Counted from the stretch's first letter, positions 2,223-31,096 are shown. The stretch is 64,000 nucleotides of DNA from an uncultured Candidatus Saccharibacteria bacterium (GCA_964399295.1 CAYNQD010000001.1:527672-591671); one strand, 5' to 3'. Notes: a model not told the origin generated them from the letters alone. Numbers and translations: made by a program.

Positions 2223-3587
2223 CTATTCCATGTCTCTTTCTGAGATTTGAAGTCTTAATCTGGCACCCTCAATTAACTCAGTGTAGGTTACGATATCGAT
2301 ATTTTTATATGCAGACTTCATTTCTTTATATGCGTCTGACGCATTTTTCTCATAGTCTACTTTTGATACCCCAGACTTAATGCTTGGCGATAGTTCATCG
2401 TAAGGTTTCACTATCCTTTGTATTGTTCCTATGACTATAATTGCTTTTGGTCTACAGATCGAAAGGGTTATTGTTCCACCCAATTCTTGTTCTAGATAGT
2501 CTCTAATTGTTAAATCTCCAATTTTTAAATCAGTGTCGTGTTCTCTATATAATGCTGAAATATACCTTTCGGACTGTGCTGCGGCAATGCCAAGTGATTT
2601 TGATGGATAAAATTTACCTCTACTAGAATCGTAGTCCAGTAAAAATTCATCTGGTCTTTTTAGCTCTACAATTTCAATATCTGAAAGGTAGTTTATTAGT
2701 AAAATATCAAATTGTGATCTTGAATGACCTATAGCAGAAACTACATACTTATTAGTATTAAGTAATGCAGGTACTCCAAATATTATGTGTTGACCGTATT
2801 TAGTAAGTATCTTTTCCATCAAATCCTCAGGGCCGCTTATTGATAGTTTTGAAAAACCAAAAATTTCGCTTCCTAAGGTTTGAGCTTTAGTTCTGGTTAA
2901 ATTATCATCATCAACTATTGTCTGCATTGCATCGAGTAACCATTGGGCTTGCTTGTTAATCTGTTTAGTTATTACAATTTCAATATTTTCTCCAGTTTCA
3001 AGCTGACTAGTCAGTGCAACAATGTCACTTTGAGAAATCTTCCTATTTGCAATAGCCTCTTGGAGTAAAATTGAATAGTCTCTTACAGTAGTGGCTTCGG
3101 TACTGACCAGCGAGTAACTTTCTTCTAAAAATGGAGCGATTCGATTTCTGACACGTGTAGTTCTATCTCTACCTTCCTCGCGATAAATTGTTGTGAGGAT
3201 GAGGTATAAATCTAACTTAATATACAAAATACTACCTTCGATTTTGTTTTCTGGGCCTCCAACAATAATTTTGTTTAGCTTTGGATTAAGATGTCGGACC
3301 ATGTCCAAAACCCTTTTTACACCTCTTGGAGGATTGCTGATGTTTCCAGTTAAAACCCTCTTCAGTGTTTCGTGATTTATCAATATTGTTGCCTCATAAT
3401 CTTCTTGGATAACATCTTCCTTCATTCTAGGAAAATATCTTGTCTTAGAATAGGAAATTTCAGTAGTTGAGTACTTAAACAATATTTTTCGACCAACTTT
3501 AACTTGTTTAGCGGAGATAGTTAATTTACCGTCATCTTGTAGCTTTGAAAGTTTTGTCTGTAATTTTTCTTGAATAGGCTTTTTCAC
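2223..3587 (-). CDS. PD-(D/E)xK-family nuclease, possibly Shedu (DUF4263)-like
   Basis: 454 aa. The C-terminal region FDILLINYLSDIEIVELKRPDEF shows the D...(D/E)-x-K arrangement (D, then E-L-K about 14 residues later) characteristic of PD-(D/E)xK nucleases. It is a single-gene, defence-type protein next to the recombinase. Confidence 0.35.
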   Translation of the reverse strand: MKKPIQEKLQTKLSKLQDDGKLTISAKQVKVGRKILFKYSTTEISYSKTRYFPRMKEDVIQEDYEATILINHETLKRVLTGNISNPPRGVKRVLDMVRHLNPKLNKIIVGGPENKIEGSILYIKLDLYLILTTIYREEGRDRTTRVRNRIAPFLEESYSLVSTEATTVRDYSILLQEAIANRKISQSDIVALTSQLETGENIEIVITKQINKQAQWLLDAMQTIVDDDNLTRTKAQTLGSEIFGFSKLSISGPEDLMEKILTKYGQHIIFGVPALLNTNKYVVSAIGHSRSQFDILLINYLSDIEIVELKRPDEFLLDYDSSRGKFYPSKSLGIAAAQSERYISALYREHDTDLKIGDLTIRDYLEQELGGTITLSICRPKAIIVIGTIQRIVKPYDELSPSIKSGVSKVDYEKNASDAYKEMKSAYKNIDIVTYTELIEGARLRLQISERDME

Positions 3588-3628: not shown

Positions 3629-4951
3629 CTAATTCAGTAATTCTAAAGTTTTATCTTTATATACTATCCTCGATCTCAAATTCGCCAATAACTCTCTCTT
3701 CTCAACAGTCGATCCTTCTTTCAGAATGTATTTTGCGTAGTTCCTGATATCCGTTTCAGGATCAGACTTTATCTTTTCTTTAGCTCCAAGCACTGATCTC
3801 TGGAATATGTTGAATCGTGCAATCTCATCTTCGAGCTTCTTTCGCATGCCTAATTCATTGATATCTACTTTATCTAATATCTTCAGAAGTTCCAGTATTA
3901 AATCTTCTTCTCTTATATACATATTTTTGCAGTTACGGTCTCTGGCTCGTGAGCAGGAGTAGTAGATGTATCTGTTTGCGCCACCAGCTTTAAGTTGTTT
4001 CCATTTCTCTTCAGCAGAGATGCCTGATCCGCAGTATCCGCAAGTAAATAGCTTTGTAAAGGCAAATTCTTTTGTTTCCCTCACTATCTGATCACGCTTG
4101 AGCTGTGCTTTGGCTTTTTCAAATAACTCTTGGGTGATGAGTGGTGCATGTTTTCCTTGATACCAGTTGCCACTATTCTTTGGTCGTTCAAATACCCCAT
4201 AGTAGAAAGGGTTTTCGAGTATACGATAGACACCTGAGAGAGTGAGTGGTTTGTTTCCTCTAGTGTAAAAGTTTAGCTCAAATCTGAGCCAGTTATATAC
4301 CTTTCGACCAGACCATTGCTCGTAGGCGACTTTCTCAAATATCTTTTTTACTGTCGGTGCACGAAGTGTATCTACAATCAGTTGGCACTTCTTATCCATT
4401 AGTCCCTGTGTTAGATAACCTAATGGTGCTATCCCTGACCATAGCCCCATCTCCGCTCTGGTCCGCAGACCCCTCTTCACATTAATACCTCTATTGTCAT
4501 TCTCCAGCTTCGCTTGCGATCCGAGAATCATCAGGAGGAACTTCTCATTTGGATTGTTGCCGAACTTCTGTCCGAACGTTCTTATCTCTTCTAATTTTCC
4601 CGCATCCATCAGGTCTACAATCCTCCCAAGGTCGCCAGCGTTTCTACTGATACGGTCGGGTGCCCATGTCAGAATACCGTTGTATTTACCTTCGCGTATC
4701 TCCTCAACTATTTCATTGAAAACTGGTCGTTGACCTGTCTCTTTGGCAGAGTGAGATTCGCGCTTCATTTCTACTATCTCCAAGCATTCTCGATCTGCGA
4801 GCTGGAGCATTTCCTTGATCTGGCTGTCTATCGAAAGCACTTGGCGTTCCTCAGACTCTGTAGACTTTCTAGCGTATAGGCAATATTTTACTTTTACGGG
4901 TACTACCTCCTGTATTGTCGTGCCGTGTGGCATTGATATCGTTTGATTCAT
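3629..4951 (-). CDS. Large serine recombinase (resolvase/invertase N-terminal domain plus recombinase and zinc-ribbon domains)
   Basis: The N-terminus VKYCLYARKSTESEERQVLSIDSQ carries the catalytic-serine resolvase motif. The C-terminus has a CGYCGS...YYSCSRAR zinc ribbon. The ORF track gives 3629..5056, but that start would overlap the divergent gene at 5022. The internal ATG at 4951 (MNQTISMPHG...) is the likelier start. Confidence 0.8.
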   Translation of the reverse strand: MNQTISMPHGTTIQEVVPVKVKYCLYARKSTESEERQVLSIDSQIKEMLQLADRECLEIVEMKRESHSAKETGQRPVFNEIVEEIREGKYNGILTWAPDRISRNAGDLGRIVDLMDAGKLEEIRTFGQKFGNNPNEKFLLMILGSQAKLENDNRGINVKRGLRTRAEMGLWSGIAPLGYLTQGLMDKKCQLIVDTLRAPTVKKIFEKVAYEQWSGRKVYNWLRFELNFYTRGNKPLTLSGVYRILENPFYYGVFERPKNSGNWYQGKHAPLITQELFEKAKAQLKRDQIVRETKEFAFTKLFTCGYCGSGISAEEKWKQLKAGGANRYIYYSCSRARDRNCKNMYIREEDLILELLKILDKVDINELGMRKKLEDEIARFNIFQRSVLGAKEKIKSDPETDIRNYAKYILKEGSTVEKRELLANLRSRIVYKDKTLELLN

Positions 4952-5021
4952 ATAACCTATCAATGACGCAACGACCCACATAAGTCTAGGCAAAACAGCA
5001 CAAAAGAGTAGAATTCTCTTA

Positions 5022-6074
5022 ATGGCACTACGAAAGCAAAGAATACCTAAATACAAAGGTCATATAATGACTAGTATTGATGCTGCTAAATTGGGAATTG
5101 AAATGTTTAACAGAGTTGAAGGTGTTCACTCAAGACAAGCGGCTTTAATTTTCAATGCTCAAGCTTGGGAATTGTTTGCGAAAGGAGTACTTACTAAAAA
5201 GAAGATAAATATATACAAAGCTGATGGGACCTCACTTAGTGGTGAAGTGGCGGTTCATAAACTTTATAGCAGACTTCATATTTTGAATGAAGTTGAGAGT
5301 CAGACCATTCAACAAGTTTTTTCGCTCAGAAATGAAGCCATGCACCACGTCTTGTCAGATGTGCCTGATGAAATACTGACACATTTAATGTATTTTTCAC
5401 TAAAGATTTACCATAAACTATTAAAGGAACAATTTCCATCGTATTTTAAAGAATTTGATAAGAATTATTTGTCTATTGCTTTCAAGGAAAACACTTTCTA
5501 CTCTCATAGAATCAAAAAACTCTATTCATCCTCTAAAAAAACTAATACCCAGAATAATCATCTTTTATATTTACTTGACCGTGCATGTAAATATGGTGCT
5601 GAATCAGACGAAAACAAGAAAATACTTTCTTATAAAGAGTGGCAAAAAAGAATAAAAGCTAAACCAAAGAAATCAAGAATCTCGAAGCATCTCTCAGTTT
5701 ATGACTATACTCAAAAACAGGATGATGTGCGTTTTGTTCCAGTAGAAACTCCCAAAGGGCATGGGGTAAATATTGATATAAGGAAAGCAAAGAAACAATC
5801 AGAAGCTTTAAGTGTTTTTATTAAAAAAAGTAATCCAGATAATGATTACCCGTTTCTAACTTCAGACATGGCTAGTCATTTGGGCAAGACTGATTATTTT
5901 GTAAGAAAACTAGCAGAAAAACTAAAGTTTGAGGGAAACACTGAATATAAGACTGTTATCAAGACAGGTAAAAAGAGCACAACTAAAAAGTTTTCAAACA
6001 AGGCTTTGGAAAGGATGCGTAGCTGGATTAAAGATAACCCACACTGGAGTCCTTATAAAACAAAGAGTACATAA
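5022..6074 (+). CDS. Hypothetical protein with an Rx4H (HEPN-like) motif and a Lys-rich C-terminal half
   Basis: 350 aa. The motif SLRNEAMHH fits the HEPN Rx4-6H pattern. The C-terminal half is basic and Lys-rich, consistent with nucleic-acid binding. The start may instead be M16 (at 5067). Confidence 0.4.
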   Translation: MALRKQRIPKYKGHIMTSIDAAKLGIEMFNRVEGVHSRQAALIFNAQAWELFAKGVLTKKKINIYKADGTSLSGEVAVHKLYSRLHILNEVESQTIQQVFSLRNEAMHHVLSDVPDEILTHLMYFSLKIYHKLLKEQFPSYFKEFDKNYLSIAFKENTFYSHRIKKLYSSSKKTNTQNNHLLYLLDRACKYGAESDENKKILSYKEWQKRIKAKPKKSRISKHLSVYDYTQKQDDVRFVPVETPKGHGVNIDIRKAKKQSEALSVFIKKSNPDNDYPFLTSDMASHLGKTDYFVRKLAEKLKFEGNTEYKTVIKTGKKSTTKKFSNKALERMRSWIKDNPHWSPYKTKST

Positions 6075-6166: not shown

Positions 6167-9100
6167 TTGTGCTATAAATACTGTATGTACTCAGTAAATG
6201 ACTACCTTTCTGAGATAGCCAAGTACTTTGAAGATGAGAACAGTTCTGAGCACTCGTATCGGACATCATTTCAAAATTACTTAGCTACTATATTCCCCGA
6301 ATCAGAGGGCTATTTTATTCAGCAGGATCAGCGAGCAATAAACGGCAACAAACCAGACTATATTGTCCTCAAGAACAAAGTTCCACTTTTATATATTGAA
6401 GTTAAGAAGGTTGGAGAAGATTTAAATAAAATTGAAAACTCTAATCAAGCCGATCGTTATTTCGGATACACAAACTTAATCATTAGTGATTACGTTGAGT
6501 TTCGTTTTTTCAGGAATGGTCAGCGGTACGACGACTCGATATCACTTGGTGATGTTCATGCTAAAACTCGCACTATCTCCCCTAAGGCAGAGAATGCGGA
6601 GCGTCTTGTGCGTACAACTAAAGACTTCACTAATAGTCAGAAAGAGCCAATCAAGAGTGGTAGGCACTTAGCAAAAATTATGGGAGGTAAGGCTCAGCGC
6701 ATCAGAGATAACGTTATTGCTTTTCTTGAAACTGAAAGTACTGATAAAGATGAGCTAATTCGGATGCGAAGGTTTATTAAGGAGCATTTGATTGAAAACT
6801 TCTCTGATGCAGATTTTGCTGATATGTACGCCCAAACTTTGGTGTATGGACTTTTTGCAGCTCGATACAATGATGATACTCTCGAGAGCTTTAGTCGTCA
6901 GGAGGCACGAGAGTTGGTACCTGCTACCAATCCATTCTTAAAGAGTTTCTTTGATCACATCTCGGGCACTTCTTTCCCTCGCCGTTTAGAACTTATCGTT
7001 AATGAACTTTGTGAGGTATTTACCCATGCAGACGTTAAGGCATTGATGGAGGACTACTTCAAAACAACCGATTTATTTGGTACAGACCATGAGAGTCCAG
7101 ACCCTGTGATCCACTTTTATGAAGACTTCCTTCGAGAATACGACCCTTCTAAAAAGATGGAAATGGGTGTTTTTTACACACCGCTTCCTGTAGTTAGATT
7201 TATTATTCGAGGTATAGACGAGCTTCTTAAGAAGGAGTTTGGTATTGCTAAAGGTTTGGCAGACAACGAAAAGATATCTGTAACAAAAACTCATGTAGAT
7301 GATCGAGGAAAAAATATTAAAGACACTCGAGAGATTCATCGTGTACAAATGCTCGATGTGGCAGTAGGTACTGGTACGTTCCTTAATGAAACGGTGAATC
7401 ATATTCACGAGTCACAGAAATCTAACCAAGGTCGTTGGAATGCGTATGTAGAAGACGATTTATTACCTCGTCTACATGGTTTTGAACTTATGATGGCAAG
7501 TTACACTATTGCTCATCTCAAGCTTGCAATGACCCTCAAGAAGAGTGGCGTGGAAAAGTTTGGAAAACGATTAGGCGTATATCTTAGTAACACGCTCGAT
7601 GATGCTCATAACATACCGTTAACTAGCTCATTATTTGGTGTTGTAGATAGTATTGCTCAGGAAAGCCGACTTGCTTCGGAAGTAAAAAATGACACACCTA
7701 TAATGGTAGTGATGGGTAATCCTCCGTATTCAGTAGTGTCACAGAACCTTCATTATACTGATAATCAAGTTTACAAAGTAGAACCAGGCGGCTTGAAAAA
7801 GCTAAAAGAAGATAAAAATTTCCTTGATGATGATTATGTTAAGTTCATCCGTTTTGCTGAAAGTATGGTTGAGAAAAATGGCGAAGGTATAATTGGGATG
7901 ATTACAAATCATGGCTATATTGATAACCTCTCTTTTAGAGGAATGCGTTGGCATTTAAGGAATACTTTCGATGTGATTTATGTACTGGATCTTCATGGAA
8001 ATAGCACGAAGAAAGAAACTGCACCTGATGGCTCAGAGGATAAAAACGTATTCGACATTAAAACAGGTGTATCAATTATTTTTGGAGTTAAGAAGAAATC
8101 TGAACAAAAAAATAAAGAACTTGCAACTGTGTACACTGCTGACATATATGGGAAGAGGGCTGAAAAATTTGCTGAATTAAGTAGTGCGAATATCGAAGGA
8201 ATTAAATGGAATAAACTACCTGAAGTTTCTGACGTTTGGAGAGTTGAAGGAGAAGGTAAAAGCGATTATATGAAAGGCTTTTCTCTGGCAGATTTATTCC
8301 CAAAAAATACAACCGGTGTCTTTACTCTAGGTGACGGTTTTATCGTTGCTGACAACAAAGATGAACTTGAAAAAAGAATTGAAGTTTTACTCAATGAAGA
8401 TGTGTCAGAGTCACAATTGACCGAGAAATATTCACTTGGAAAAAATTATGCTAGATGGGTCATTGAAAATAAAAAAGCGGGGAAAATAATTGACTTCAGA
8501 AGTACTTTAACTTCACTGAATTACAGACCATTTGATAAACGCTACACCACCCTGACGACTAGTTTGGTTTGGCGTCCGCGTATCTCCGTGATGAAGCATT
8601 TATTGCAATCTGGGAATACGGCGTTGTTATTTAGTAGACAGGGTGGAGCTGCAAATCCCACATCATTTGACACTATTTTTATTTCAGACTCTGCAGTTGA
8701 TCTTAATTTCTTTAGAAGAGGCGGTGAGGTTGTGTGTCCTCTCTACTTGTATGAAGGTGATGACAGAGTTGCTAATCTGGATGATGAGATTGTTAATAAT
8801 ATTGAAAAGATATCGCACAAGACTAATCCAGAGGATATTGTAGATTACATTTACGCGTATCTGCACTCACCTACCTATCGCACAAAGTACAAAGAATTTT
8901 TGAATGGTGACTTTCCTCGAGTTCCTTATCCGAAAAATAAAGATTATTTTTGGAAAATTGTAGAGTCAGGTCGTCACCTAAGAGAACTGCACCTACTTAC
9001 TCATTCTTCAATACAAAATCAAATCACCTCTTTTCCAGAAACTGGAACAGATACGGTAGATAAGCCAGTATTTAAAAATAACCGTGTATATATAAATGAT

Positions 9101-9292
9101 GTTCAGTATTGGGACGGTATACCGAAGGAGGTGTGGGAATTCTATATCGGGGGTTACCAACCATTGCAGAAATATCTAAAAGACCGTAAAGGCAAAAAAC
9201 TAAGCTCAGCAGAGTTTGAGAATTATGAAAAAATGATTGTCTCATTAAATGAAACAATCATGGTTATGAAGGAAATAGATAAAATTATTTAA
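6167..9292 (+). CDS. Type IIG/IIL restriction-modification enzyme (N-terminal PD-ExK nuclease, gamma-class N6-adenine methyltransferase, C-terminal target-recognition region), MmeI/PglX-like
   Basis: 1041 aa. The N-terminus has KPDYIVL...LYIEVKK (PD...E-x-K). The methyltransferase motif IV is VVMGNPPYS, and a motif-I-like LDVAVGTGTF is upstream. The start may be the second Met at 6185. Confidence 0.75.
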   Translation: MCYKYCMYSVNDYLSEIAKYFEDENSSEHSYRTSFQNYLATIFPESEGYFIQQDQRAINGNKPDYIVLKNKVPLLYIEVKKVGEDLNKIENSNQADRYFGYTNLIISDYVEFRFFRNGQRYDDSISLGDVHAKTRTISPKAENAERLVRTTKDFTNSQKEPIKSGRHLAKIMGGKAQRIRDNVIAFLETESTDKDELIRMRRFIKEHLIENFSDADFADMYAQTLVYGLFAARYNDDTLESFSRQEARELVPATNPFLKSFFDHISGTSFPRRLELIVNELCEVFTHADVKALMEDYFKTTDLFGTDHESPDPVIHFYEDFLREYDPSKKMEMGVFYTPLPVVRFIIRGIDELLKKEFGIAKGLADNEKISVTKTHVDDRGKNIKDTREIHRVQMLDVAVGTGTFLNETVNHIHESQKSNQGRWNAYVEDDLLPRLHGFELMMASYTIAHLKLAMTLKKSGVEKFGKRLGVYLSNTLDDAHNIPLTSSLFGVVDSIAQESRLASEVKNDTPIMVVMGNPPYSVVSQNLHYTDNQVYKVEPGGLKKLKEDKNFLDDDYVKFIRFAESMVEKNGEGIIGMITNHGYIDNLSFRGMRWHLRNTFDVIYVLDLHGNSTKKETAPDGSEDKNVFDIKTGVSIIFGVKKKSEQKNKELATVYTADIYGKRAEKFAELSSANIEGIKWNKLPEVSDVWRVEGEGKSDYMKGFSLADLFPKNTTGVFTLGDGFIVADNKDELEKRIEVLLNEDVSESQLTEKYSLGKNYARWVIENKKAGKIIDFRSTLTSLNYRPFDKRYTTLTTSLVWRPRISVMKHLLQSGNTALLFSRQGGAANPTSFDTIFISDSAVDLNFFRRGGEVVCPLYLYEGDDRVANLDDEIVNNIEKISHKTNPEDIVDYIYAYLHSPTYRTKYKEFLNGDFPRVPYPKNKDYFWKIVESGRHLRELHLLTHSSIQNQITSFPETGTDTVDKPVFKNNRVYINDVQYWDGIPKEVWEFYIGGYQPLQKYLKDRKGKKLSSAEFENYEKMIVSLNETIMVMKEIDKII

Positions 9293-9295
9293 TAT

Positions 9296-10006
9296 ATGTC
9301 ACACCAACAAGCCTCAAACTGGATATCTCTCTCAGACATGATGACAGGTCTCATGCTCATCTTTTTACTGATTGCAGTATTGGTCACAATGCAAATTACT
9401 CAAGAACAAAAACAGAGACAACAGTCGGTAGCTGAATATCAAGAAATCAAAGACGATATTTACACAGACCTAAAAGATGCCTTTGGTTCAAAAGAAGATG
9501 CTTGGGGTATTGATATCACACGTGATCTTGTTATTAAGTTTGAAAATCCTGACCTTCTGTTTGGTGTTGATGAAGCTAATTTAACAGAGGGATATAAAAA
9601 CATCTTAAGTGAGTTTATTCCTCTATATATTGGTATTATTAATAAGCAGGAATATAAAGAACGGATTAAGGAGGTCCGAATCGAAGGTCACACAGCTGAT
9701 GTTTCTTCAGCCCACCCTACATACATGAGTACTATTGAACTATCTCAAGATAGATCTAATGCAGTTCTAGAATATATTTTAGAAAATAATTTCTTCAATA
9801 GCCTAGAAGGACCAGACCAAAGAAAATTACGCTTTTGGTTTAGTGCCAACGGTTTGGGTAATGGTAGAACATTAGACCAAAACAGCCAGTATACATACGT
9901 GACAAACGCTCCTATTAGCCCAAATTCGAGAAGAGTTGAATTCCGTATCCTAACGGATAGTGAGAGTTTGATTGACGAAATTTTTAAACAAGATATTAAT
10001 AACTAA
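9296..10006 (+). CDS. MotB/ZorB-like protein (N-terminal TM helix with conserved Asp, C-terminal OmpA-like peptidoglycan-binding domain)
   Basis: 236 aa. NWISLSDMMTGLMLIFLLIAVL matches the MotB TM/plug signature (W..Y/L-A/S-D-L/M-MT.LM.FF). The C-terminus VRIEGHTADVSS...LSQDRSNAVLEYIL...RRVEFRI matches the OmpA-family core. Confidence 0.7.
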   Translation: MSHQQASNWISLSDMMTGLMLIFLLIAVLVTMQITQEQKQRQQSVAEYQEIKDDIYTDLKDAFGSKEDAWGIDITRDLVIKFENPDLLFGVDEANLTEGYKNILSEFIPLYIGIINKQEYKERIKEVRIEGHTADVSSAHPTYMSTIELSQDRSNAVLEYILENNFFNSLEGPDQRKLRFWFSANGLGNGRTLDQNSQYTYVTNAPISPNSRRVEFRILTDSESLIDEIFKQDINN

Positions 10007-10009
10007 ATT

Positions 10010-11158
10010 ATGAGCGATACAACATCTATTATTTTCCTAATTTCAATTGTAGTTTCCGCTATTATTGTGTTTAGTCCTTATGTTCTAAGGTTTTGGAAGA
10101 ATTCAGCCGAAATTCAAACTACTGTTACTACAATGGGTATTGTCGGTACTTTTGTTGGTATCCTCATCAGTCTCTCTAATTTTGACGTAGAGAATATTAG
10201 CACTACCATTCCACAACTTATTGGTGGATTAAAACTTGCTTTCATTACCTCGGTTGCTGGTATTGGTACTGCACTTGTAACCAGTCTTTTTCCTAGACTC
10301 TACCTGATCAAAGCGGAAGTTGTTGATGAAAATCTTTCTGACACTGACCTACTGCGAGCAATACATGGAGAACTACAAAAACTCAATAACAATATTTCAG
10401 GTGATGATGAATCAACTCTTATATACCAGATACAAAAAATGAGGATAAGTATTGTTGATAAGCAAGACGAGCTCAAAAAAGCTTTTGATGAGTTTGCTAG
10501 CCAAATGGCAAAGAATAATATTGAACAGTTAATTGAAGCTATCAATAAAGTGATGGAGGATTTCAATGCCAAAATTAACGATCAGCTTGGTCAAAGCTTT
10601 AAGGAACTTAGTGATTCCGTTCGGTCACTAGTTGAGTGGCAACAAAACTATATAACTACAGTACAAGAAGCCACTGGAGCATTGGGGGCAGCACAAGAGA
10701 GTCTCAAGAATTCGTCAGACAGCCTTACAAATACATCCGATAAGGTTTCTGAGATTGCAGAAAATAATAAGAATATATCTGAGGTAAATCAAGAGCTTAA
10801 GGTCGTTGTCGAAAATTTGAACCAAATGCTTGAGTCAACTGTTGGGTTCTCACAAAATATGAAAGTTCTAGCTGAAAGTCTGAGTGGAAGCGGAGATACA
10901 ATTCGAACTGAAATTAAATCTCTTGTAGAAGAAAGTATACTAAACATGCAGACTCACGCAGAAGATATTTCAAAGAATATAAACGCTATTTCGGATACAG
11001 CGATGAAGAATATGCAAGAGAAAAATACTGAAACCCTACAAAACTTTGAAGAGATTAATCAGAAGACACTTCAAGACTTCGGCGGTCATTTAGCTAGTAT
11101 TGCTGGGAAGATGACTGATGACTTCAGACGTGTTCAGGAGGCCTTGTCTATTAAATAG
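10010..11158 (+). CDS. MotA/TolQ/ExbB-like proton-channel protein with a long C-terminal coiled-coil tail (ZorA-like)
   Basis: 382 aa with three N-terminal TM helices. MGIVGTFVGIL and LKLAFITSVAGIGTALV match the MotA/ExbB TM3-TM4 signatures (LGTVxG ... A.TT..Gl). Residues about 110-382 are heptad-like, Glu/Lys/Gln/Asn/Leu-rich coiled coil. Confidence 0.6.
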   Translation: MSDTTSIIFLISIVVSAIIVFSPYVLRFWKNSAEIQTTVTTMGIVGTFVGILISLSNFDVENISTTIPQLIGGLKLAFITSVAGIGTALVTSLFPRLYLIKAEVVDENLSDTDLLRAIHGELQKLNNNISGDDESTLIYQIQKMRISIVDKQDELKKAFDEFASQMAKNNIEQLIEAINKVMEDFNAKINDQLGQSFKELSDSVRSLVEWQQNYITTVQEATGALGAAQESLKNSSDSLTNTSDKVSEIAENNKNISEVNQELKVVVENLNQMLESTVGFSQNMKVLAESLSGSGDTIRTEIKSLVEESILNMQTHAEDISKNINAISDTAMKNMQEKNTETLQNFEEINQKTLQDFGGHLASIAGKMTDDFRRVQEALSIK

Positions 11159-11166
11159 AATTACAT

Positions 11167-12258
11167 ATGGGAAATAGAGAATTTGAAGAAGCGATAGCAA
11201 ACATCTCAAGTTCTTTTTCTCTGAGTAAAGAAAAAATAGGTGCTCTAAGTGTGAATTGGAAGTTGCTACCAAAAGAGTTGGTTGTAATTGCCGGTAAATT
11301 TGATCGTGGTGAACCAATCTCCGATGCAGAAATTCTTGAGTATAAAAAGGTTTGGAGATCAGACGATCCTCTCATTGATGAAAATGGGAAGCCTTTTGTG
11401 TTTTATATTCATGACTTTGCTAACTCACACTGGGGTAAGCCAAATCGAGTATTTCATGTAGCTTGGTGCACTACGCTTGAGCGGATGGATAATAACGGGC
11501 GTAAAGCAAGGTATGTAAAGAAAGGAGATCTAGATAATAATGATTTTACTGTTGACTATGGTGAAGGGAAAAAAGGTATCGAACACCTACCTGCCTGTAT
11601 AAATTGCCGAACTAAAATGCAGGGCATTGTCGCTCCATCCGATCTTTATTACGAGCGCGATGATATGGATATCAGGAAATTCTTTAATATGTACGGCAGA
11701 CAGGATCTGCTAGACGTAAGCAATCCAATGTACCCAGTTGATTACCCAGCGAACTGGAATCAAATTTCATTGTCTTTACGAGAAAGAGCTAACTGGACAT
11801 GTAGCTCGTGCGGTCTGGATTGTTCTACAAATAAAAATCTACTACACGTACATCACAAAGATGGTAGAAGAGGCGTGGTTCATGCTGGTAATTTAGAAGT
11901 TGTCTGTGTTGATTGTCATAGTAAAAAATTTGGACATTCACACATGCGTACTGGTGTTTCTTCATCTAAGAATAGAATCGTATTTACTCCTAAACAATCT
12001 ACAACTGAGACTGTAAAAGTTCCTGCTTTCACTAATGAAAATACAGTGACTAGAGTTTCAAGTTCTCAACAAAATAAACTAGATAGTTTTATAGCTAATC
12101 CAGATAGGTATGCAACTGGCTCAGAAAAGACAAAACTTAAAGTGAGAGAAGCTCAAGAAACATTTAATCTAATCAAAGAGAGTCTAAGTAAAGCAGAACA
12201 AAACAAGTTTTATGACGCTCTAAAAACTTATCAAAGAACTTTAAAAGACCGATTATGA
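11167..12258 (+). CDS. HNH endonuclease-domain protein (ZorE-like position)
   Basis: 363 aa. CSSCGLDCSTNKNLLHVHHKDGRRGVVHAGNLEVVCVDCHSK is an HNH motif with paired Cys and His-His. Its stop overlaps the next gene's start (ATGA). Confidence 0.7.
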   Translation: MGNREFEEAIANISSSFSLSKEKIGALSVNWKLLPKELVVIAGKFDRGEPISDAEILEYKKVWRSDDPLIDENGKPFVFYIHDFANSHWGKPNRVFHVAWCTTLERMDNNGRKARYVKKGDLDNNDFTVDYGEGKKGIEHLPACINCRTKMQGIVAPSDLYYERDDMDIRKFFNMYGRQDLLDVSNPMYPVDYPANWNQISLSLRERANWTCSSCGLDCSTNKNLLHVHHKDGRRGVVHAGNLEVVCVDCHSKKFGHSHMRTGVSSSKNRIVFTPKQSTTETVKVPAFTNENTVTRVSSSQQNKLDSFIANPDRYATGSEKTKLKVREAQETFNLIKESLSKAEQNKFYDALKTYQRTLKDRL

Positions 12259-13757
12259 TTCTCACAAAAACAGACTTTTTGATTTCTAAAGGATGTAATA
12301 AAAATGCTTGGCTGAAAGTACATAAGCCTGATGTCTATAGAAAAAAAGAACTATCGGCCTTTGAATTGAACATTATCGATACAGGTAATGAAATTGATGA
12401 ACTGGCGAGACAATTGTTCCCGGGTGGTGTTTTAGTTGAAGATCGTCATGATGCCACTCTTACTCAAGAGCTAATTGCTAATCGTACTCCCGTTATATAT
12501 CAGCCTGTATTTATAACTGATAAGTACTCAGCAATCGCTGACATCATTGTCTGGAACAATAATACAGAGGCGTACGACTTATACGAAGTAAAGTCCTCTA
12601 CTGCTACCCATGAAGGAGAAGGCGGCCGTCGAGCTGAAGAGTACAAAAATGACGTCGCGTTCCAGAAGGTTGTAATGGATACGTTATCTATTCCTGTCGG
12701 TAAGTTACATCTAGTTCGTCTAGATAAATCTTATGTTCGCTCTGGAGAGCTTTCAATTCAAAAGCTTTTCATAACTAAAGAAATTACGGAAGATGTAGAG
12801 GAGATTGTGTCTGATATAGAAGGTCAAATGGCAGGCGTTCATGAATATATTAATCGTGAGCAAGAGCCAACTGGTCATTGTGACTGCTGGGTGAAATCTA
12901 AGAGCAATCACTGTACAACTTTCTGGTATTCAAATCCTGATATTCCCGACTACTCTGTCCATCAAATTTCTAGAATTGGTAATAGTCCTACAAAGCTCAC
13001 TGTATTGATTGAGAGTGAAATCATAGATATCCATAAGGTCCCTCACGATTTTGAACTCTCCGATAATCAAAGGCGTCAGGTGGATGTGGCTCAGTCAGGT
13101 AGAACTGTCATCGATTCCGAGGGTGTCGATACTTTTCTTGAACGACTGGAATACCCACTAGCTTTTATTGATTACGAAACATTTCCTTCTGCAGTGCCAA
13201 GATACTCAGGCTATCATCCTTACCAACAAATACCTTTTCAGTTCTCGCTACATATCATTGAAGAAGAAGGTGGTGAAATGACTCATGCTGAATTTCTGCA
13301 TACAGAAAATTCAAATCCAGACGAAAGATTTGTAGAGGCCATAAAAGAACATTTACCACCTACGGGGACTGTTCTTGTTTGGAGTCAAAAGTTTGAGAAA
13401 GGTATCAATAATCAGGTTGCTGAAAGACTGCCTCAGTATCAAGAATTTATCACTAGCGTGCAAGATAGAATCGTTGACCTAATTGAGCCATTTGATGGAA
13501 AAACCGCAGTGTATTGGCATCCAGATTTTCTTGGAAAGTCATCTATCAAATTCGTTTTACCTGCCCTTGTGCCTAAACTTTCATATAAAGAACTAGAGAT
13601 ACAAGAAGGTGGTGCCGCTGCTGATACATGGAACAGAATCGTGTCTGGCGAATATTCAGATGAAGAGGCTCAGCGAAAGATAACTGCACTCCTAAAGTAT
13701 TGTCACTTGGACACTTTGGCGATGGTTGAGATATGGAAGGTGCTCAAGCGGTCATAA
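12255..13757 (+). CDS. Fusion of a Cas4/RecB-like PD-(D/E)xK nuclease (with a Cys cluster) and a DnaQ/DEDD-like 3'-5' exonuclease (DUF2779-like)
   Basis: 500 aa. The N-terminal half has ADIIV...YDLYEVKSS (D...E-V-K) and a GHCDCWVKSKSNHC Cys cluster like the Cas4 Fe-S cluster. The C-terminal half has AFIDYETF, which matches the DnaQ Exo I motif D-x-E-T. The 4-bp start/stop overlap with the HNH gene suggests translational coupling. Confidence 0.5.
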   Translation: MILTKTDFLISKGCNKNAWLKVHKPDVYRKKELSAFELNIIDTGNEIDELARQLFPGGVLVEDRHDATLTQELIANRTPVIYQPVFITDKYSAIADIIVWNNNTEAYDLYEVKSSTATHEGEGGRRAEEYKNDVAFQKVVMDTLSIPVGKLHLVRLDKSYVRSGELSIQKLFITKEITEDVEEIVSDIEGQMAGVHEYINREQEPTGHCDCWVKSKSNHCTTFWYSNPDIPDYSVHQISRIGNSPTKLTVLIESEIIDIHKVPHDFELSDNQRRQVDVAQSGRTVIDSEGVDTFLERLEYPLAFIDYETFPSAVPRYSGYHPYQQIPFQFSLHIIEEEGGEMTHAEFLHTENSNPDERFVEAIKEHLPPTGTVLVWSQKFEKGINNQVAERLPQYQEFITSVQDRIVDLIEPFDGKTAVYWHPDFLGKSSIKFVLPALVPKLSYKELEIQEGGAAADTWNRIVSGEYSDEEAQRKITALLKYCHLDTLAMVEIWKVLKRS

Positions 13758-13779
13758 GTCGTCTGTTATTATATTAAGT

Positions 13780-14442
13780 ATGGAATTTTCTACATCAAAC
13801 ATCATCAAAGGAATACTCTCAGGCATGTGGGAGATGAAAGAGCTATATTTCACGATGATTGGTGTAGCACTGCTCGCACTCGCACTTCGAGTGATGATTG
13901 ACCTCATGAGTCGGCGAAGTAAGATCAAATGGTTTTTAGGAAAGAAGCAAGTGCAAGATCTTCAGAAACTTACCCCTACACAATTTGAAGAATATATCGC
14001 AGTACTTTTTAAATCTCTTGGCTATGAAACTAGAGTTACGGGTGGCAAGGGTGACGGTGGTGTAGATGTTCAAGCTGAAAAAGACGGTCATGTTCACTAC
14101 ATCCAGTGTAAGAAATTCATCACCTCAAAAGTGCCAGTCAGTGCGGTACGTGATTTTTATGGAGCCATTGCAGATCGAGTAGATGGAGGAAAAGGGTATT
14201 TTATTACCACCAACGTTTTCACTCTTGATGCTGAGAAGTTTGCTGAGGATAAACCAATTGAACTCATCGACAAGTTTAAGTTAATGGAGTACATGCAGAT
14301 GGTGGATGCTGATATTCCTGAAGTAAAAGCGTCAGTTTGTCCAAAATGTGGAAGTGAGCTAGTGAGACGTCGAGGCAAGTATGGTGCTTTTCTAGGCTGT
14401 AGCACATATCCAGATTGTGACTATACAGAGAAACTTACCTAA
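13780..14442 (+). CDS. Mrr-family restriction endonuclease with a C-terminal topoisomerase-type C4 zinc ribbon and an N-terminal TM segment
   Basis: FEEYIAVLFKSLGYETRVTGGKGDGGVDVQAEKDGHVHYIQCKKF matches the Mrr_cat core (GxxDxGxD...QxK). The C-terminus is CPKCGSELVRRRGKYGAFLGCSTYPDCDY. The ORF track start at 13726 overlaps the previous gene, so the Met at 13780 is used here. Confidence 0.65.
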   Translation: MEFSTSNIIKGILSGMWEMKELYFTMIGVALLALALRVMIDLMSRRSKIKWFLGKKQVQDLQKLTPTQFEEYIAVLFKSLGYETRVTGGKGDGGVDVQAEKDGHVHYIQCKKFITSKVPVSAVRDFYGAIADRVDGGKGYFITTNVFTLDAEKFAEDKPIELIDKFKLMEYMQMVDADIPEVKASVCPKCGSELVRRRGKYGAFLGCSTYPDCDYTEKLT

Positions 14443-15914
14443 GTTCGTAGTTTACTCAACTCCTCGGTAAATACTTCTAGACCCTCATTCTGTTTTGGAA
14501 TGAGGTTTTGTATTGTAATACTTGGGTCAGGTAGGAATGTTTGTATTGGGTACTTAATATTTCTTTTAGTATAAATAACCTCTTGTATATGGTCATCTGT
14601 GTGCCGCAGGTAAAAATTTAGAGTATTGATGGAGTCTGAAATTTCAGCAAGTTGGTTTAATACTTTCTCACTCAAGTCCTCTCCAACGATTTCTGACATT
14701 CTCTCAGCAATAGCCTTGAAAGCTAGTAGATGACTGTAGCTCTCAAATACTGACGATTCATGGACTAGAAAAGCTGGATAACTGTACATCATTAAGTCAG
14801 TAATTTGATTTTGATAATCATTCACAAACGGTAGTTGTATATTTGATTGCACAAGACTTTCTCCAGTTATAAAAGTCTTGTTGAGACACACTTCAAAAAA
14901 CTTAGTCGGGCATTCTTTAAGTACTAGGTCACCAGTAGAAATATATTGCTGTAGCAGATTAACTGTTTTATCTTTAGCCTTTATCCAGCGTCGCATAATT
15001 TCATCGTGTCTGAGTTCAGTTTCGCCTTCGAAAGTCAGATGCCCCTCGCTGTTACACAGCGGTGTATATTCATCAAAAAATAGACCTTCACGTATGGAGT
15101 CCCGAACAATACCCTCAAGCTTGTATTTCAGATCAGGGAGCTTAGCCAGTTCAGCATGAAGCTCGTCTTCAGTTTTGAATAAAATATTGTTTCGACTAGC
15201 TAATCGTTTCCCGAAGTTAAGTAAAGGATAGCCAGCAAAGTGGGTTTTAAAGATAACCTCTTTAACGCTTATTTTCACCACACTAAAATTAGCCTCTTGC
15301 CCCCAAGGGATTGAGTCGATAACTATCTTAGTAAGAACGTCTACTTCTTTTTCTGAGAGTGACTGCTTACCAGTAAGGATACGAGCTAGTTGCTCTTCAG
15401 CTAAAAAGTATGAGTGGTCTGATGTTACAGAAGGATCGAGTAGTAATATATCTTGCTGAAGTTTCTTAGGTAATGAATAGAATGTATACAGATGCACCAG
15501 TCTGTCGTATTCAAAGCCAGAGTGCTGTAAAAAGAAGTCACGAAACTCTTTAGTGTGATCATCCGGGATCACTCGACTAAGAAAATGCTTACGTTGCTTT
15601 GGGCTATCCCTTTTGTAGTAAAACATTTGGGCGATCTGCTCCAAGCGAGCAATAGATAGCTGCGATACCAAGTATGAGGTCTGCATATCTATTTCTAGTC
15701 GGCCGAACATATTCCAGACCTCTAGATATTTGTTGTACTGCTCAGCCTCTCTATAATCACGAGGTTTCCAACTCGTTGTCAGGGCTACGATATCGGCTTC
15801 AGTAACAAGACCCTTCCCAGTCTTCCGCTCATGAGCTTCATTTCGTATCACTAACAAAACTCGCTCCCGAGGGGTCAGGTTTCCTTTAGCCAGTAGTTTT
15901 GTAATATCTTTCAT
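14439..15914 (-). CDS. Hypothetical protein (last gene of the minus-strand accessory operon)
   Basis: 491-aa ORF with no recognisable motif. It converges on the plus-strand defence operon, and the stops are 4 bp apart. Confidence 0.45.
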   Translation of the reverse strand: MKDITKLLAKGNLTPRERVLLVIRNEAHERKTGKGLVTEADIVALTTSWKPRDYREAEQYNKYLEVWNMFGRLEIDMQTSYLVSQLSIARLEQIAQMFYYKRDSPKQRKHFLSRVIPDDHTKEFRDFFLQHSGFEYDRLVHLYTFYSLPKKLQQDILLLDPSVTSDHSYFLAEEQLARILTGKQSLSEKEVDVLTKIVIDSIPWGQEANFSVVKISVKEVIFKTHFAGYPLLNFGKRLASRNNILFKTEDELHAELAKLPDLKYKLEGIVRDSIREGLFFDEYTPLCNSEGHLTFEGETELRHDEIMRRWIKAKDKTVNLLQQYISTGDLVLKECPTKFFEVCLNKTFITGESLVQSNIQLPFVNDYQNQITDLMMYSYPAFLVHESSVFESYSHLLAFKAIAERMSEIVGEDLSEKVLNQLAEISDSINTLNFYLRHTDDHIQEVIYTKRNIKYPIQTFLPDPSITIQNLIPKQNEGLEVFTEELSKLRT

Positions 15915-15916
15915 AG

Positions 15917-16123
15917 TTACTTTCTTTGAGTAAGCATTTGTTCCAGTACATCGATACGCTGTTTGAGTTCCATGTTAGTAATGTTTTTAGACAAGGCTAA
16001 CGCTATTCGAGATATGACCTGAGCCCGCTTAGGTGAAATCTTTCTAGCGGCTACTTGGAGCAGGGCATCAGAGAGGATTTCATTAACTTCAGCTAAGTTT
16101 AGTGTTTTCTTTATTTCTTTCAT
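15917..16123 (-). CDS. Small hypothetical protein
   Basis: 68 aa. It is tightly packed between flanking genes in the same orientation. Confidence 0.35.
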   Translation of the reverse strand: MKEIKKTLNLAEVNEILSDALLQVAARKISPKRAQVISRIALALSKNITNMELKQRIDVLEQMLTQRK

Positions 16124-16126
16124 AAG

Positions 16127-16513
16127 CTAAAAGTTTTCAATTATTTCAAACCAAGTTTTTACCTCCTTTGATTTACCGTGCTTGGTAGCATTTTTATACA
16201 AGGCCAACACTACGTTTGGTGTCAGTTTTCTGGCCCATGTATAGGTATGTTCAAGCAAGCCCTCGTCTTCAATCCGTTTATTCCAGTCAGTGAGTGTACC
16301 TAGGTCTTTGACGTTGTAGTGTGAAGCAAAGTCTTTTTGAGTTTTTATCTGCAATAGCTCAATGGTGATGTCGTCATCAATACCCATCTTTCTTAGTACA
16401 GCATCAGGCTGACCTCGCAGGAATGTCGGTAGTGATTTCCACGTCACATACGCCGCAAAGTCCTGTTTGCGATATACACCAGTATTTCTTTTTTCATTAT
16501 GATGCTCGCTCAT
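16127..16513 (-). CDS. Hypothetical protein (phage-like small protein)
   Basis: 128 aa. It overlaps the upstream methyltransferase gene by 17 nt. Confidence 0.4.
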   Translation of the reverse strand: MSEHHNEKRNTGVYRKQDFAAYVTWKSLPTFLRGQPDAVLRKMGIDDDITIELLQIKTQKDFASHYNVKDLGTLTDWNKRIEDEGLLEHTYTWARKLTPNVVLALYKNATKHGKSKEVKTWFEIIENF

Positions 16514-17270
16514 GCTTTGTGATTAATACTCGCTTCTGCTTCGTCAGCTCTTCTAGTCGCTTTAGACAGATTTCTACATACTCAGAGTCCTGTTCAATTC
16601 CAATACAAACGCGACCTAACTGAGCACAAGCAACAGCGGTACTTCCGCTTCCTAAGAATCCGTCATACACGACATCGCCAATACTGGTGACGTTTTGAAT
16701 TAGTTTCCGTAGTAGGCCAATCGGTTTTTGCGTAGGGTGGAGCTTTGACTTCTGTGGTCGAGGATGGAATATGGCACTGCTCATTTGAGCTTTTACTCGC
16801 TTGTGCTTTTTATACCAACCATAAGCAATAAGCTCTTGCTGAGGCAGATAGTCCATACGACCCATTACCGATTGGTTTTTGACCCATATCAGCATCTGAC
16901 TGAAATGTAGTCCTGCGGTGTACATGCCAGTTCTAAGAGCCAGAAACATGCTGTCGCAGTTAAAGATATGGAAGGTGTTGTATGGGTTCAGATGTGGCAA
17001 AACGGCCTCGATCCATGACTGAGTAAACCGAGCGTACTCATATTCACTTTGTATATGGTCACCCTTAATCACTTTGGCGTTTTTCTTACCAAGTTCAGCT
17101 ACGCCTACTTTATTCTCCACGTACGCTACTCCATAAGGCGGATCGGTCACAACTGATTGAATCTTTTTGGTACCAATAACCATCGCTACAAAATCTTTGT
17201 TAAGTGAGTCGCCACAGGCAACCACATGTTCGCCAACAGAGTAGATTTCTCCTGTAGTTATAGATTTCAT
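16497..17270 (-). CDS. DNA methyltransferase (beta-class N6-adenine or N4-cytosine)
   Basis: The catalytic motif is SVVTDPPYGVAY (DPPY). The SAM-binding region is HPTQKP...DGFLGSGST. This motif order is typical of beta-class amino-methyltransferases. Confidence 0.8.
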   Translation of the reverse strand: MKSITTGEIYSVGEHVVACGDSLNKDFVAMVIGTKKIQSVVTDPPYGVAYVENKVGVAELGKKNAKVIKGDHIQSEYEYARFTQSWIEAVLPHLNPYNTFHIFNCDSMFLALRTGMYTAGLHFSQMLIWVKNQSVMGRMDYLPQQELIAYGWYKKHKRVKAQMSSAIFHPRPQKSKLHPTQKPIGLLRKLIQNVTSIGDVVYDGFLGSGSTAVACAQLGRVCIGIEQDSEYVEICLKRLEELTKQKRVLITKHERAS

Positions 17271-20195: not shown

Positions 20196-20307
20196 AATGT
20201 GTTGACAAAGTACATTTTTTTGTGTTGAATACAAGAACTCGCAGGCTTACGAGAAGCTGTGAGCGTTCCTAGGAAACTGAAACCCTTCAACCTCATGAGG
20301 TGAAACA

Positions 20308-20796
20308 ATGCAAGCGAAAAGCAACCTTGCGGTCCTTTCGGTCCGCGCGAAACTCGCCAATGATCCGGCGCTCTTGGATCGGATGATGGCCTACGACCAC
20401 CTGGCGCTCCGTGAGCGCATGCAGGTCAAGTACGGCTGGAGTCCGGAGAAGACCGACGAGCTGTTCGGCGAGATGAAGAAGTTCATGTATCTCTGCGCGA
20501 CCAACGACGGTGCCATGGCACCGCCCGAGGACATCGACGAGATCTGGCACAACTTTATCCTGTTCACCGGCGACTATGCCGACTACTGTCAGGACACTGT
20601 CGGCATGTTCCTTCATCACCAGCCGCTCACGGTCGCCCAGCGCGCCCAAAGCGACGGCTCGATGATCACGAATACGCTGGATGCTGCCCGTCGCGCTTTC
20701 GGCGACGATGTTCCCGAGAAGTACTGGTCCTTCCAGAAGATCCCGGGGAGCTGTGGACCGGGCGTCTGTGGTGCTTCGACCAACTGCCAAAGCTGA
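20308..20796 (+). CDS. Hypothetical protein in a strongly GC-rich (about 60%) segment, possibly DUF1399/GRDP-like
   Basis: 162 aa. The composition is clearly different from the roughly 40% GC background. The DEIWHNFILFTGDYADYC region resembles the W-H-x-H...DC core of DUF1399. A hairpin plus T8 terminator follows it. Confidence 0.5.
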   Translation: MQAKSNLAVLSVRAKLANDPALLDRMMAYDHLALRERMQVKYGWSPEKTDELFGEMKKFMYLCATNDGAMAPPEDIDEIWHNFILFTGDYADYCQDTVGMFLHHQPLTVAQRAQSDGSMITNTLDAARRAFGDDVPEKYWSFQKIPGSCGPGVCGASTNCQS

Positions 20797-20877
20797 CGAT
20801 CGGCCGACGGCAATCATGAATCGCGCGTCATCCTTTCGAGGGTGACGCGCATTTTTTTTACAACCAGAGGAATCATT

Positions 20878-31051: not shown

Positions 31052-31096
31052 CTTTGTTTTGAATTTCATATCCTTCTAGTGTTATAATCAAAAGTA

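Follow-up and report, generated by a model that had tools for sequence, protein, structure and literature searches.

Does tight packing of defence genes mean that they work as a single system? The question is raised by six co-directional genes at 6185-14442 on the plus strand of a 64,000-nucleotide stretch of DNA from an uncultured Candidatus Saccharibacteria bacterium (GCA_964399295.1 CAYNQD010000001.1:527672-591671), which we refer to as the window. In order, these genes encode a Type IIG/IIL restriction-modification (RM) enzyme, the ZorB, ZorA and ZorE proteins of a Zorya type II system, a DUF2779 protein in which a Cas4-like nuclease is fused to a predicted DEDDy-type exonuclease, and an Mrr nuclease with a zinc ribbon (Mrr-ZnR; Table 1). 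An earlier note on this DNA had read them as a co-expressed and possibly functionally integrated super-operon. Integration of all six genes finds no support here, as relatives carry each module separately. The array is probably a mosaic of swappable cassettes rather than one integrated system, and within it the Zorya genes, ordered zorB-zorA-zorE (B-A-E), belong to a clade that recurrently pairs with a Cas4-like/exonuclease gene.

Exchange of cassettes within the array

The closest relatives of the array genes reside in metagenome-assembled genomes of Patescibacteria. Related neighbourhoods were sampled from one genome scan, one metagenome scan and twelve contigs, with open reading frames (ORFs) in the loci called mechanically. 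Nucleotide comparison (blastn) of the window with locus L004 (Patescibacteria UBA661) reveals similarity that extends through the RM gene to 9283 and resumes at 12258; a 1360-amino-acid (aa) SNF2 helicase takes the place of ZorB-ZorA-ZorE, giving the order RM-SNF2-DUF2779-Mrr. For L162, similarity runs to 9298 and resumes at 13779, where RM is followed by Mrr after 3 nt. That is to say, ZorB-ZorA-ZorE-DUF2779 forms a 4.5-kb block that is either present or absent between RM and Mrr. Loci L006, L157 and L158 keep RM-ZorB-ZorA-ZorE-DUF2779 in a different flank (xseA) and add a 390-aa or 208-aa gene before Mrr, with a GIY-YIG gene after Mrr in L157 and L158. The RM of L006/L157 is only 41% identical to that of the window, compared with 63-78% for ZorB, ZorA, ZorE, DUF2779 and Mrr, which argues that the RM allele was swapped in place. 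Mrr also occurs without RM, Zorya or DUF2779, alone beside a methyltransferase (MTase) block in L163 and within a different array in L160, and RM recurs with the B-A-E Zorya clade only in one close lineage. In these relatives the breaks coincide exactly with gene boundaries. RM, Zorya and Mrr are accordingly separable cassettes, and packing by itself is no proof of functional integration.

The junctions stay tight regardless of which neighbour adjoins, in the window and in related loci alike. ORF calls agree with the earlier note on six same-strand ORFs and on gaps of 3 nt from the RM stop to the ZorB ATG, 3 nt from ZorB to ZorA and 8 nt from ZorA to ZorE. Two overlap junctions had also been described; one stands, the 4-nt ATGA overlap (gap -4) of ZorE with DUF2779, which is present in four lineages. 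The other becomes a 22-nt gap between DUF2779 and Mrr, because the more likely Mrr start is ATG 13780, as called on identical contigs and in relatives and in agreement with full-length homologs. Similarly, the RM ORF reaches back to a TTG at 6167, from which a protein of 1041 aa had been counted; gene calls on identical public contigs use ATG 6185, the more likely start. Of the other same-strand neighbour pairs in the window, 30% lie no more than 10 nt apart and 43% no more than 25 nt, and the six-gene array is the longest tight run, followed by a five-gene run on the opposite strand. The array is packed more tightly than the local norm, in a genome that is itself compact.

Promoter and terminator prediction, which the earlier note had proposed as a check, was limited to crude consensus pattern matching. 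The scan found no plus-strand terminator-like hairpin within the array and no sigma-70-like site in its intergenic gaps. The sole plus-strand terminator-like site near the array is a hairpin inside the 3' end of the convergent gene beyond Mrr. Tight junctions and the lack of an internal terminator-like site make co-expression plausible, as the note had supposed, and the six genes are probably transcribed as one unit.

The zorB-zorA-zorE clade and its exonuclease partner

Where the earlier note saw a Zorya-like MotAB pair with an HNH nuclease, the gene set was correct and the label too cautious. Hidden Markov models (HMMs) for ZorB2, ZorA2 and ZorE2 in PADLOC, the tool suggested for the region, match the three proteins, just as the REase_MTase_IIG model matches RM, and together with matches to 8VVI they identify at the sequence level a true Zorya type II set rather than a motor that merely resembles one. 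ZorB combines a MotB-like transmembrane helix bearing a conserved Asp (WISLSDMMT) with an OmpA-like peptidoglycan-binding domain, and matches the type II ZorB of S. kujiense (8VVI_A) at 2.6e-35 with the SDMMT motif aligned. ZorA has three N-terminal hydrophobic segments (judged by eye), a Pfam MotA_ExbB match at residues 33-102 and then a helical tail of ~280 aa; it matches S. kujiense ZorA (8VVI_F) at 1e-28 over residues 31-357. As the latter measures 378 aa (PMC11890865), the short ZorA of the window is not unusual. ZorE ends in a C-terminal extension of ~100 aa, and its HNH residues (H229/H230...N242...H251) are invariant in the ZorE alignment; a PDB sequence search with ZorE found nothing.

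All three components of Zorya type II, as known from E. coli and S. kujiense (8VVI), are present with strong HMM matches. What sets the window apart is the order zorB-zorA-zorE instead of the canonical zorA-zorB-zorE (A-B-E), a host that is probably a member of the Patescibacteria, and the frequent presence, in the B-A-E clade, of a Cas4-like/exonuclease gene in the same directon. Since gene order is a convention and not a functional requirement, we still file the window genes as a Zorya II variant; the native zor gene order of S. kujiense is not stated in its source paper.

Homologs of ZorE were collected as 22 word-level matches in a protein collection and, using a ZorE alignment, as 67 loci in the metagenome scan. 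These were labelled by iterative HMMs, and the distant ZorA and ZorB labels depend on HMMs built iteratively in this analysis. In all 49 more distant metagenomic loci ZorB lies directly ahead of ZorE, the order being A-B-E where the contig is complete; ZorA measures 401-762 aa where complete, and DUF2779 is found in none of the 49. Only a small clade has the B-A-E order, combined with a ZorA of 350-390 aa.

Inspection of this clade reveals repeated association with a two-nuclease gene. Besides the window itself (RM-B-A-E-DUF2779-Mrr), L006/L157 and probably L086 have the same arrangement with one gene inserted before Mrr. L008 holds E-DUF2779-Mrr and appears recombinant, since its ZorE is 45% but its DUF2779 84% identical. 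DUF2779 lies instead upstream of ZorB in L154-156 (DUF2779-B-A-E; DUF2779 42% identical), where there is neither RM nor Mrr, and L088 has a probable ZorA tail fragment followed by E (32%) and DUF2779 (36%). In L164-167 a helix-turn-helix (HTH) gene precedes B-A-E, which is followed by genes for a 598-aa and then a 500-aa protein. The 500-aa protein of L164 matches Cas4 HMMs, PDDEXK_1 and RNase_H_2 (PF13482) and has no significant BLASTP similarity to the window DUF2779 protein; here, then, another family provides the same pair of nuclease domains. B-A-E stands alone between housekeeping or unrelated genes in L152, L153 and L087, and L168 carries A-E, then a 56-aa gene, then an AAA ATPase.

Overall, a Cas4-like/exonuclease fusion occupies the same gene run in 6 of 10 B-A-E lineages as opposed to 0 of 39 assessable A-B-E loci (Fisher p = 1.5e-5, or 1.3e-4 for DUF2779 only, with lineages that are not independent). 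The fusion stands in two gene orders relative to ZorBAE, and in a simple distance (neighbour-joining) tree the Zorya-linked DUF2779 proteins fall at three distant positions. Of the two proteins whose co-occurrence with MotAB-like pairs the earlier note wished to see checked, the exonuclease fusion does recur with the B-A-E clade, whereas Mrr-ZnR does not outside one close lineage.

We also considered the C-terminal extension of ZorE as a docking site for DUF2779 and rejected it because the correlation is not clean. A partner gene mostly follows long-form ZorE; DUF2779 also accompanies the short form in L088 and L154, and the long-form ZorE of L168 is followed by an AAA ATPase, not DUF2779.

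The DUF2779 protein had been described as a Cas4-like/DnaQ-like fusion, and its PF11074 match and invariant residues bear this out. In an alignment of 14 homologs, the N-terminal half, a Cas4/RecB-like PD-(D/E)xK domain, has invariant D96, E111 and K113, accompanied by invariant cysteines C14, C209, C211 and C220; the C-terminal half has invariant D306, E308, D408, Y482 and D486. Comparison with a published alignment (PMC13621843) assigns the DEDDy residues and predicts a DEDDy-type 3'-5' exonuclease in the C-terminal half. Foldseek searches with an AlphaFold2 model (predicted local distance difference test score 79) place MGME1, Cas4 Pcal_0546, RecE and Cas4-Cas1 at the top, and match the C-terminal half to ERI2 and 3'hExo; the MGME1, Cas4 and RecE matches have probabilities of ~1, but E-values are only ~4e-3 or weaker throughout, so that the matches agree with the expected fold yet are statistically weak. 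A PDB sequence search with the protein found nothing.

Published sequence analyses already describe this combination of a Cas4-like domain with a DEDD exonuclease (PMC3985635, PMC13621843), and PF11074 belongs in the 3'-5' exonuclease clade as RNase H-like family F.17 (PMC3985635). The window protein shares both domains and the catalytic residues with the solo-Cas4-DEDD fusions, represented by MMSYN1_0389 (PMC13621843) and F.17 (PMC3985635). DUF2779 proteins from the Candidate Phyla Radiation (CPR) retain all four cysteines of the Fe-S module, whereas the Mycoplasma protein is without them (PMC13621843). Neither the Pfam-scanned ORFs of window positions 576-24926 nor the annotations of the related loci examined revealed any cas genes, so the domain is a solo Cas4-like one and not a CRISPR-associated Cas4. 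Solo Cas4-like nucleases, common in CPR, were proposed in 2017 to be ancillary to RM and other defence systems (PMC5704561). In the UvrD-Cas4 and solo-Cas4 cases, a Cas4-family nuclease likewise stands beside Type III Mod/Res and other defence genes and was read as an ancillary DNA processor (PMC5704561); in contrast to UvrD-Cas4, the fusion partner in DUF2779 is a 3'-5' exonuclease instead of a helicase, and the Pfam family is another one.

A GTDB genome scan for DUF2779 yielded 77 loci, among which Zorya genes and Mrr-ZnR adjoin DUF2779 only in a clade of at least 69% identity (tblastn). In the CPR clade at ~60% identity, a co-directional gene lies no more than 60 nt upstream of DUF2779 in 22 of 36 cases, and in 16 of these it is at least 300 aa long; a large close downstream neighbour is present for only 3 of 35. 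The upstream partners comprise Type II RM, made up of an EcoRI-type MTase with a GmrSD_N/HNH restriction endonuclease, together with AAA_13 (PDC-S06); Type III Mod and Res, in some cases joined by a HerA-like ATPase; a superfamily 1 helicase-MTES_1575 nuclease of 1600 aa (PDC-S37/Hhe-like); RmuC; an OLD-family ATPase-TOPRIM with a UvrD-like helicase (Gabija-like); a Schlafen-type helicase; and IIG RM with DUF3644. DNA-targeting defence arrays thus frequently end in DUF2779, which is not specific to Zorya. On the Campylobacterota plasmids L190, L191 and L192 it lies beside a PDC-S26 PD-(D/E)XK nuclease with a 2-nt gap, within an array that combines AAA ATPases with an MkoC-like helicase and a dGTPase, and next to another AAA ATPase, so that its habit of residing in defence islands reaches beyond the Patescibacteria. 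Some genomes carry two copies. Neither the position of DUF2779 at the ends of defence operons nor its link to Zorya is described in the searchable literature.

A Hydrogenimonas plasmid carries, 3.7 kb from DUF2779, genes for a 382-aa 'ATP-binding protein' and a 226-aa protein together with an HNH gene, a set that resembled a short Zorya II; PADLOC rules this out, showing PDC-M25 and HNH.

Further observations concern canonical Zorya loci in the metagenome scan. A-B-E sets are often flanked by a ~970-aa SNF2-like gene, downstream in L100, L101, L118, L124 and L140 and upstream in L123 and L135, and a gene of ~1500-1700 aa stands beside the SNF2-like gene in L100, L101, L123 and L135. By analogy with E. 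coli, these flanking genes are probably DruH/DruE of Druantia III. A tandem arrangement occurs at ~10001-20630 of L145: past A-B-E come another ZorA (688 aa) and ZorB (218 aa), then a protein of 767 aa and an SNF2 protein (1184 aa); this second Zorya system looks like type I.

A proposed finishing role for DUF2779

We consider it reasonably probable that the array is a co-transcribed defence island of separable cassettes, in which the DUF2779 protein is an accessory that finishes DNA cut or nicked by the system encoded upstream. Four cassettes would be involved: the self-contained IIG/IIL RM, Zorya II (B-A-E), the DUF2779 exonuclease, and a probably membrane-anchored Mrr-ZnR belonging to the element backbone. 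RM would on its own provide sequence-specific restriction and methylation, and Mrr too would act alone, though both may share the transcript. ZorA5B2 is an ion-driven 5:2 complex, and on infection ZorAB recruits ZorE, which is mainly a nickase, to the membrane (PMC11890865). In the window, infection would likewise lead the ZorAB motor to bring the ZorE nickase to the membrane, and the DUF2779 protein would then enlarge ZorE nicks to gaps, degrading DNA in both directions. Its Cas4-like domain would act 5'-3', the polarity of Cas4 enzymes on single-stranded DNA (PMC5704561), and its DEDDy domain 3'-5'.

The same finishing role would be taken after other cutting or nicking systems, making DUF2779 a promiscuous downstream accessory. 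It would thereby be comparable to the exonuclease hub on which the role is modelled: in E. coli, Zorya II relies on RecBCD and shared DNA intermediates, and so does the synergy between it and Druantia III (PMC13192584). There too a second DNA-processing enzyme is encoded beside Zorya II, although the partner in the window is a helicase-less two-nuclease fusion and not DruH/DruE. A bolder proposal, which we advance only tentatively, is that DUF2779 or its PF13482-type counterpart is a shared fourth component in Patescibacteria and some other bacteria, a portable substitute for RecBCD/AddAB that finishes DNA nicked or cut by ZorE, by Gabija-like OLD proteins and by Type II, III and IIG enzymes, and that the zorB-zorA-zorE clade is a distinct Zorya subtype whose effectors are ZorE and the exonuclease.

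The steps of Zorya defence after ZorE nicking are still being worked out, and in E. coli they draw on host RecBCD and neighbouring systems. A Zorya II lineage with its own two-polarity exonuclease would, if the finishing role is correct, be a compact four-gene unit that bears on how nicks become lethal to phage DNA. A role would also be assigned to DUF2779, a widespread family that includes a quasi-essential gene of a minimal cell. The exact-boundary swaps of cassettes between RM and Mrr illustrate the way in which very small genomes rebuild their defence islands, and caution against taking tight packing for functional integration.

Several observations weigh against the finishing role and the single transcript. 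Co-transcription is read from spacing and the consensus scan, and a -10-like hexamer (TATTAT, TATCAT, TAAAAT or similar, often with TG before it) ends 6-9 nt ahead of the Mrr-ZnR ATG, seen by eye at 13758-13779 of the window and at the same spot in L004, L008, L006, L157, L160, L162 and L163. As it precedes the ATG in every context, the stand-alone Mrr of L163 included, the hexamer may be a promoter of Mrr's own and may give rise to a leaderless or short-leader Mrr mRNA. The B-A-E lineages are few (~10) and interrelated, and almost all belong to a single phylum whose defence islands commonly hold DUF2779; their link to the exonuclease is thus suggestive and not proven, and part of it could be shared island history. 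The ZorA call of L088 is a 129-aa coiled-coil fragment (E = 6e-6). ZorBAE occurs without the exonuclease in 3-4 lineages and so does not require it, and no Zorya lies near the majority of DUF2779 genes. One copy in CPR follows rpoC, and a homolog is quasi-essential in JCVI-syn3.0 (PMC13621843), both of which fit a housekeeping repair function. All four modules might accordingly be independent, with DUF2779 a stand-alone repair or defence nuclease that gathers in islands and sits beside ZorBAE through shared ancestry and hitch-hiking. This is a serious possibility, if a doubtful one: DUF2779 stands beside at least 8 system types and sometimes beside housekeeping genes, its family includes the quasi-essential Mycoplasma gene, ZorBAE alone is apparently complete in L152 and L153, and no PADLOC model includes DUF2779. 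Adjacency to the B-A-E clade is nonetheless held across two gene orders, spans ZorE identities of 32-75%, DUF2779 identities of 36-84% and three distant DUF2779 branches, and retains the ZorE/DUF2779 ATGA overlap in four lineages; where DUF2779 is missing from one lineage, another Pfam family with the same two-nuclease architecture substitutes for it.

Two further explanations join the genes in other ways. DUF2779 and Mrr-ZnR could make up a two-gene nuclease system with ZorBAE or the SNF2 helicase inserted upstream, and within the DUF2779 clade of at least 69% identity Mrr-ZnR is indeed always within one gene, lying directly downstream in the window, L004 and L008, one gene away in L006 and L157, and directly upstream in L010. 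Such a pair is improbable, as Mrr-ZnR homologs of 65-81% identity do without DUF2779 in L160, L162 and L163, no DUF2779 gene at ~60% identity has Mrr-ZnR, L154, L088 and L164 join the exonuclease to Zorya without Mrr, and Mrr tracks the backbone MTase block. That all six genes constitute one integrated, mutually dependent multi-nuclease system would suit their very tight packing, the single terminator-like site after Mrr and the recurrence of the same six-gene order plus one insert in L006/L157 between different flanks. We hold it to be very improbable and largely refuted by the finding of each sub-combination elsewhere with breaks at gene boundaries, by the independent exchange of the RM allele, by the extra genes between DUF2779 and Mrr in L006 and L157, and by the fact that RM, Zorya II and Mrr are each of kinds known to be autonomous. 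The earlier note had also allowed that the additional nucleases are independent systems, which largely applies to RM and Mrr.

The kinds of RM, Zorya II and Mrr found here are already known, as is the architecture of DUF2779. Judging by the searchable literature, novelty appears to lie in the zorB-zorA-zorE clade, in its repeated association with a Cas4-like/exonuclease fusion, for which an analogous family substitutes in one lineage, and in the exact-boundary exchange of cassettes between RM and Mrr.

The restriction enzyme, Mrr and the surrounding island

Table 1. Coordinates of the array genes and neighbouring features in the window
Feature	Position	Strand	Size and evidence
Type IIG/IIL RM, single chain	6185-9292	+	1035 aa; PADLOC, Pfam and PDB sequence matches
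ZorB, type II	9296-10006	+	ZorB2 HMM 1.7e-67; Pfam OmpA 4e-8
ZorA, type II, short form	10010-11158	+	382 aa; ZorA2 HMM 2e-58, nearly full length
ZorE, HNH nuclease, long form	11167-12258	+	ZorE2 HMMs 3.6e-37; Pfam DUF8245 (precomputed)
DUF2779, Cas4-like and predicted DEDDy fusion	12255-13757	+	Pfam PF11074 1e-37
Mrr with C4 zinc ribbon	13780-14442	+	220 aa; Mrr_cat 4e-27; Zn_ribbon_Top1 2e-17
Terminator-like hairpin	14483-14505	+	Consensus scan, pattern match only; 41 nt past Mrr stop
DUF3644 protein (PADLOC candidate PDC-S19)	5022-6074	+	Pfam DUF3644 7e-10; PDC-S19 1e-20
Large serine recombinase, island border	3629-5056	-	Resolvase, Recombinase and Zn_ribbon_recom, precomputed for an identical gene
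Shedu-like SduA_C protein, beside serine recombinase	2223-3587	-	454 aa; SduA_C 1.7e-8
Putative backbone block, convergent with array	14439-18550	-	Genes of 491, 68 and 128 aa; N6_N4 MTase (257 aa); ParB_N-MTase (427 aa)

The RM protein matches PADLOC REase_MTase_IIG at 2.7e-257 and Pfam Type_ISP_C at 3e-74, as well as N6_Mtase, Eco57I and HSDR_N (HSDR_N-like residues 57-120), and its translation shows a D...EVK motif in addition to the NPPY motif that the earlier note had given for its Type IIG enzyme, an identification that stands. These features predict an N-terminal PD-ExK nuclease, an NPPY gamma-class N6-adenine MTase and a Type_ISP_C target-recognition domain (TRD). PDB sequence matches include 7LO5 (1029 aa; 6e-40), that is, DrdV of Type IIL, as well as the MTase-TRD portions of LlaBIII/LlaGI. 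Type IIL/IIG enzymes (DrdV, MmeI family) and the Type ISP enzymes with this MTase-TRD (LlaGI, LlaBIII) likewise carry nuclease, NPPY MTase and Type_ISP_C on one polypeptide; the window RM is itself ordinary, and noteworthy only as the swappable first cassette. The RM, SNF2 and Mrr genes of L004 were considered as a split Type ISP enzyme, a reading rejected because RM comes with an N-terminal nuclease of its own and has complete IIL enzymes among its matches.

The DUF3644 gene, co-directional with RM and 110 nt upstream of it, may encode a partner of the IIG RM and not a member of the six-gene run. DUF3644 lies between an IIG-type RM/MTase and DUF2779 in L025 (8694-9665) and L066 (8205-9176), and is absent from L004 and L162; the arrangement suggests a recurring trio of DUF3644, IIG RM and DUF2779. 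At 3-3783 of L162, the slot that DUF3644 occupies in the window is filled by a Hachiman-like pair (HamA and a DEAD/ResIII helicase) upstream of the same IIG RM, which represents another cassette variant.

Matches of the last array gene to Mrr_cat and Zn_ribbon_Top1 uphold its earlier description as an Mrr-like enzyme with a topoisomerase-type zinc ribbon. By eye, its translation has an N-terminal hydrophobic stretch, LYFTMIGVALLALALRVMIDLM, followed by a basic stretch; the N-terminal helix is probably a membrane anchor, and cleavage is probably modification-dependent. The Mrr_cat core is shared with Mrr-family type IV enzymes and with the Mrr-like C-terminal domain of ZorD (Zorya I), for which the match is weak (1e-15). 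The window protein differs from both in its small size, probable membrane helix and Topo I-type zinc ribbon, and from ZorD in being unlinked to Zorya outside its own island lineage. Mrr-ZnR homologs in L162 and L163 adjoin the downstream gene block of the window, with neither Zorya nor DUF2779 present. A different co-directional array ends in Mrr-ZnR at 645-7663 of L160, comprising HTH, 830-aa Hsp70-like, 486-aa, 197-aa and 351-aa AAA ATPase genes; this Hsp70-like/AAA array may be an undescribed defence module.

The array lies in a ~19-kb island that extends from a tRNA-Ser gene (1281-1370) to a jump in GC content near 20-21 kb. The serine recombinase at its border has a 95% identical homolog in L004, and the adjacent SduA_C gene is a further candidate defence gene of the island. 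Convergent with the array is a five-gene block that ranks second in tightness among the directons of the window. L004 and L162 retain this block next to Mrr-ZnR, and L163 retains part of it. The block resembles a mobile-element backbone of Patescibacteria, and gene content across these loci assigns Mrr to that putative backbone along with the opposite-strand block. Only short chance repeats were found in a search for att direct repeats flanking the island from the tRNA-Ser gene to the GC jump. Scans of IMG/VR with ZorE and DUF2779 alignments found no copy of the island. A phage origin was rejected, IMG/VR having given only distant ZorE relatives (no more than 41% identity over short stretches) and two distant DUF2779 matches.

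Between 20000 and 21500, GC content is 0.50-0.53 compared with ~0.38 in the island; this segment is probably the island border, or else a structural RNA or another foreign segment. Two long ORFs overlap there on opposite strands, at 20293-20817 (minus) and 20308-20796 (plus). Farther along the window, housekeeping markers of the host chromosome appear: a tRNA-Ile gene with anticodon TAT at 30979-31052 and a tmRNA at 37399-37795 whose tag peptide reads AKKSIPSPYANAFGFAPAFA.

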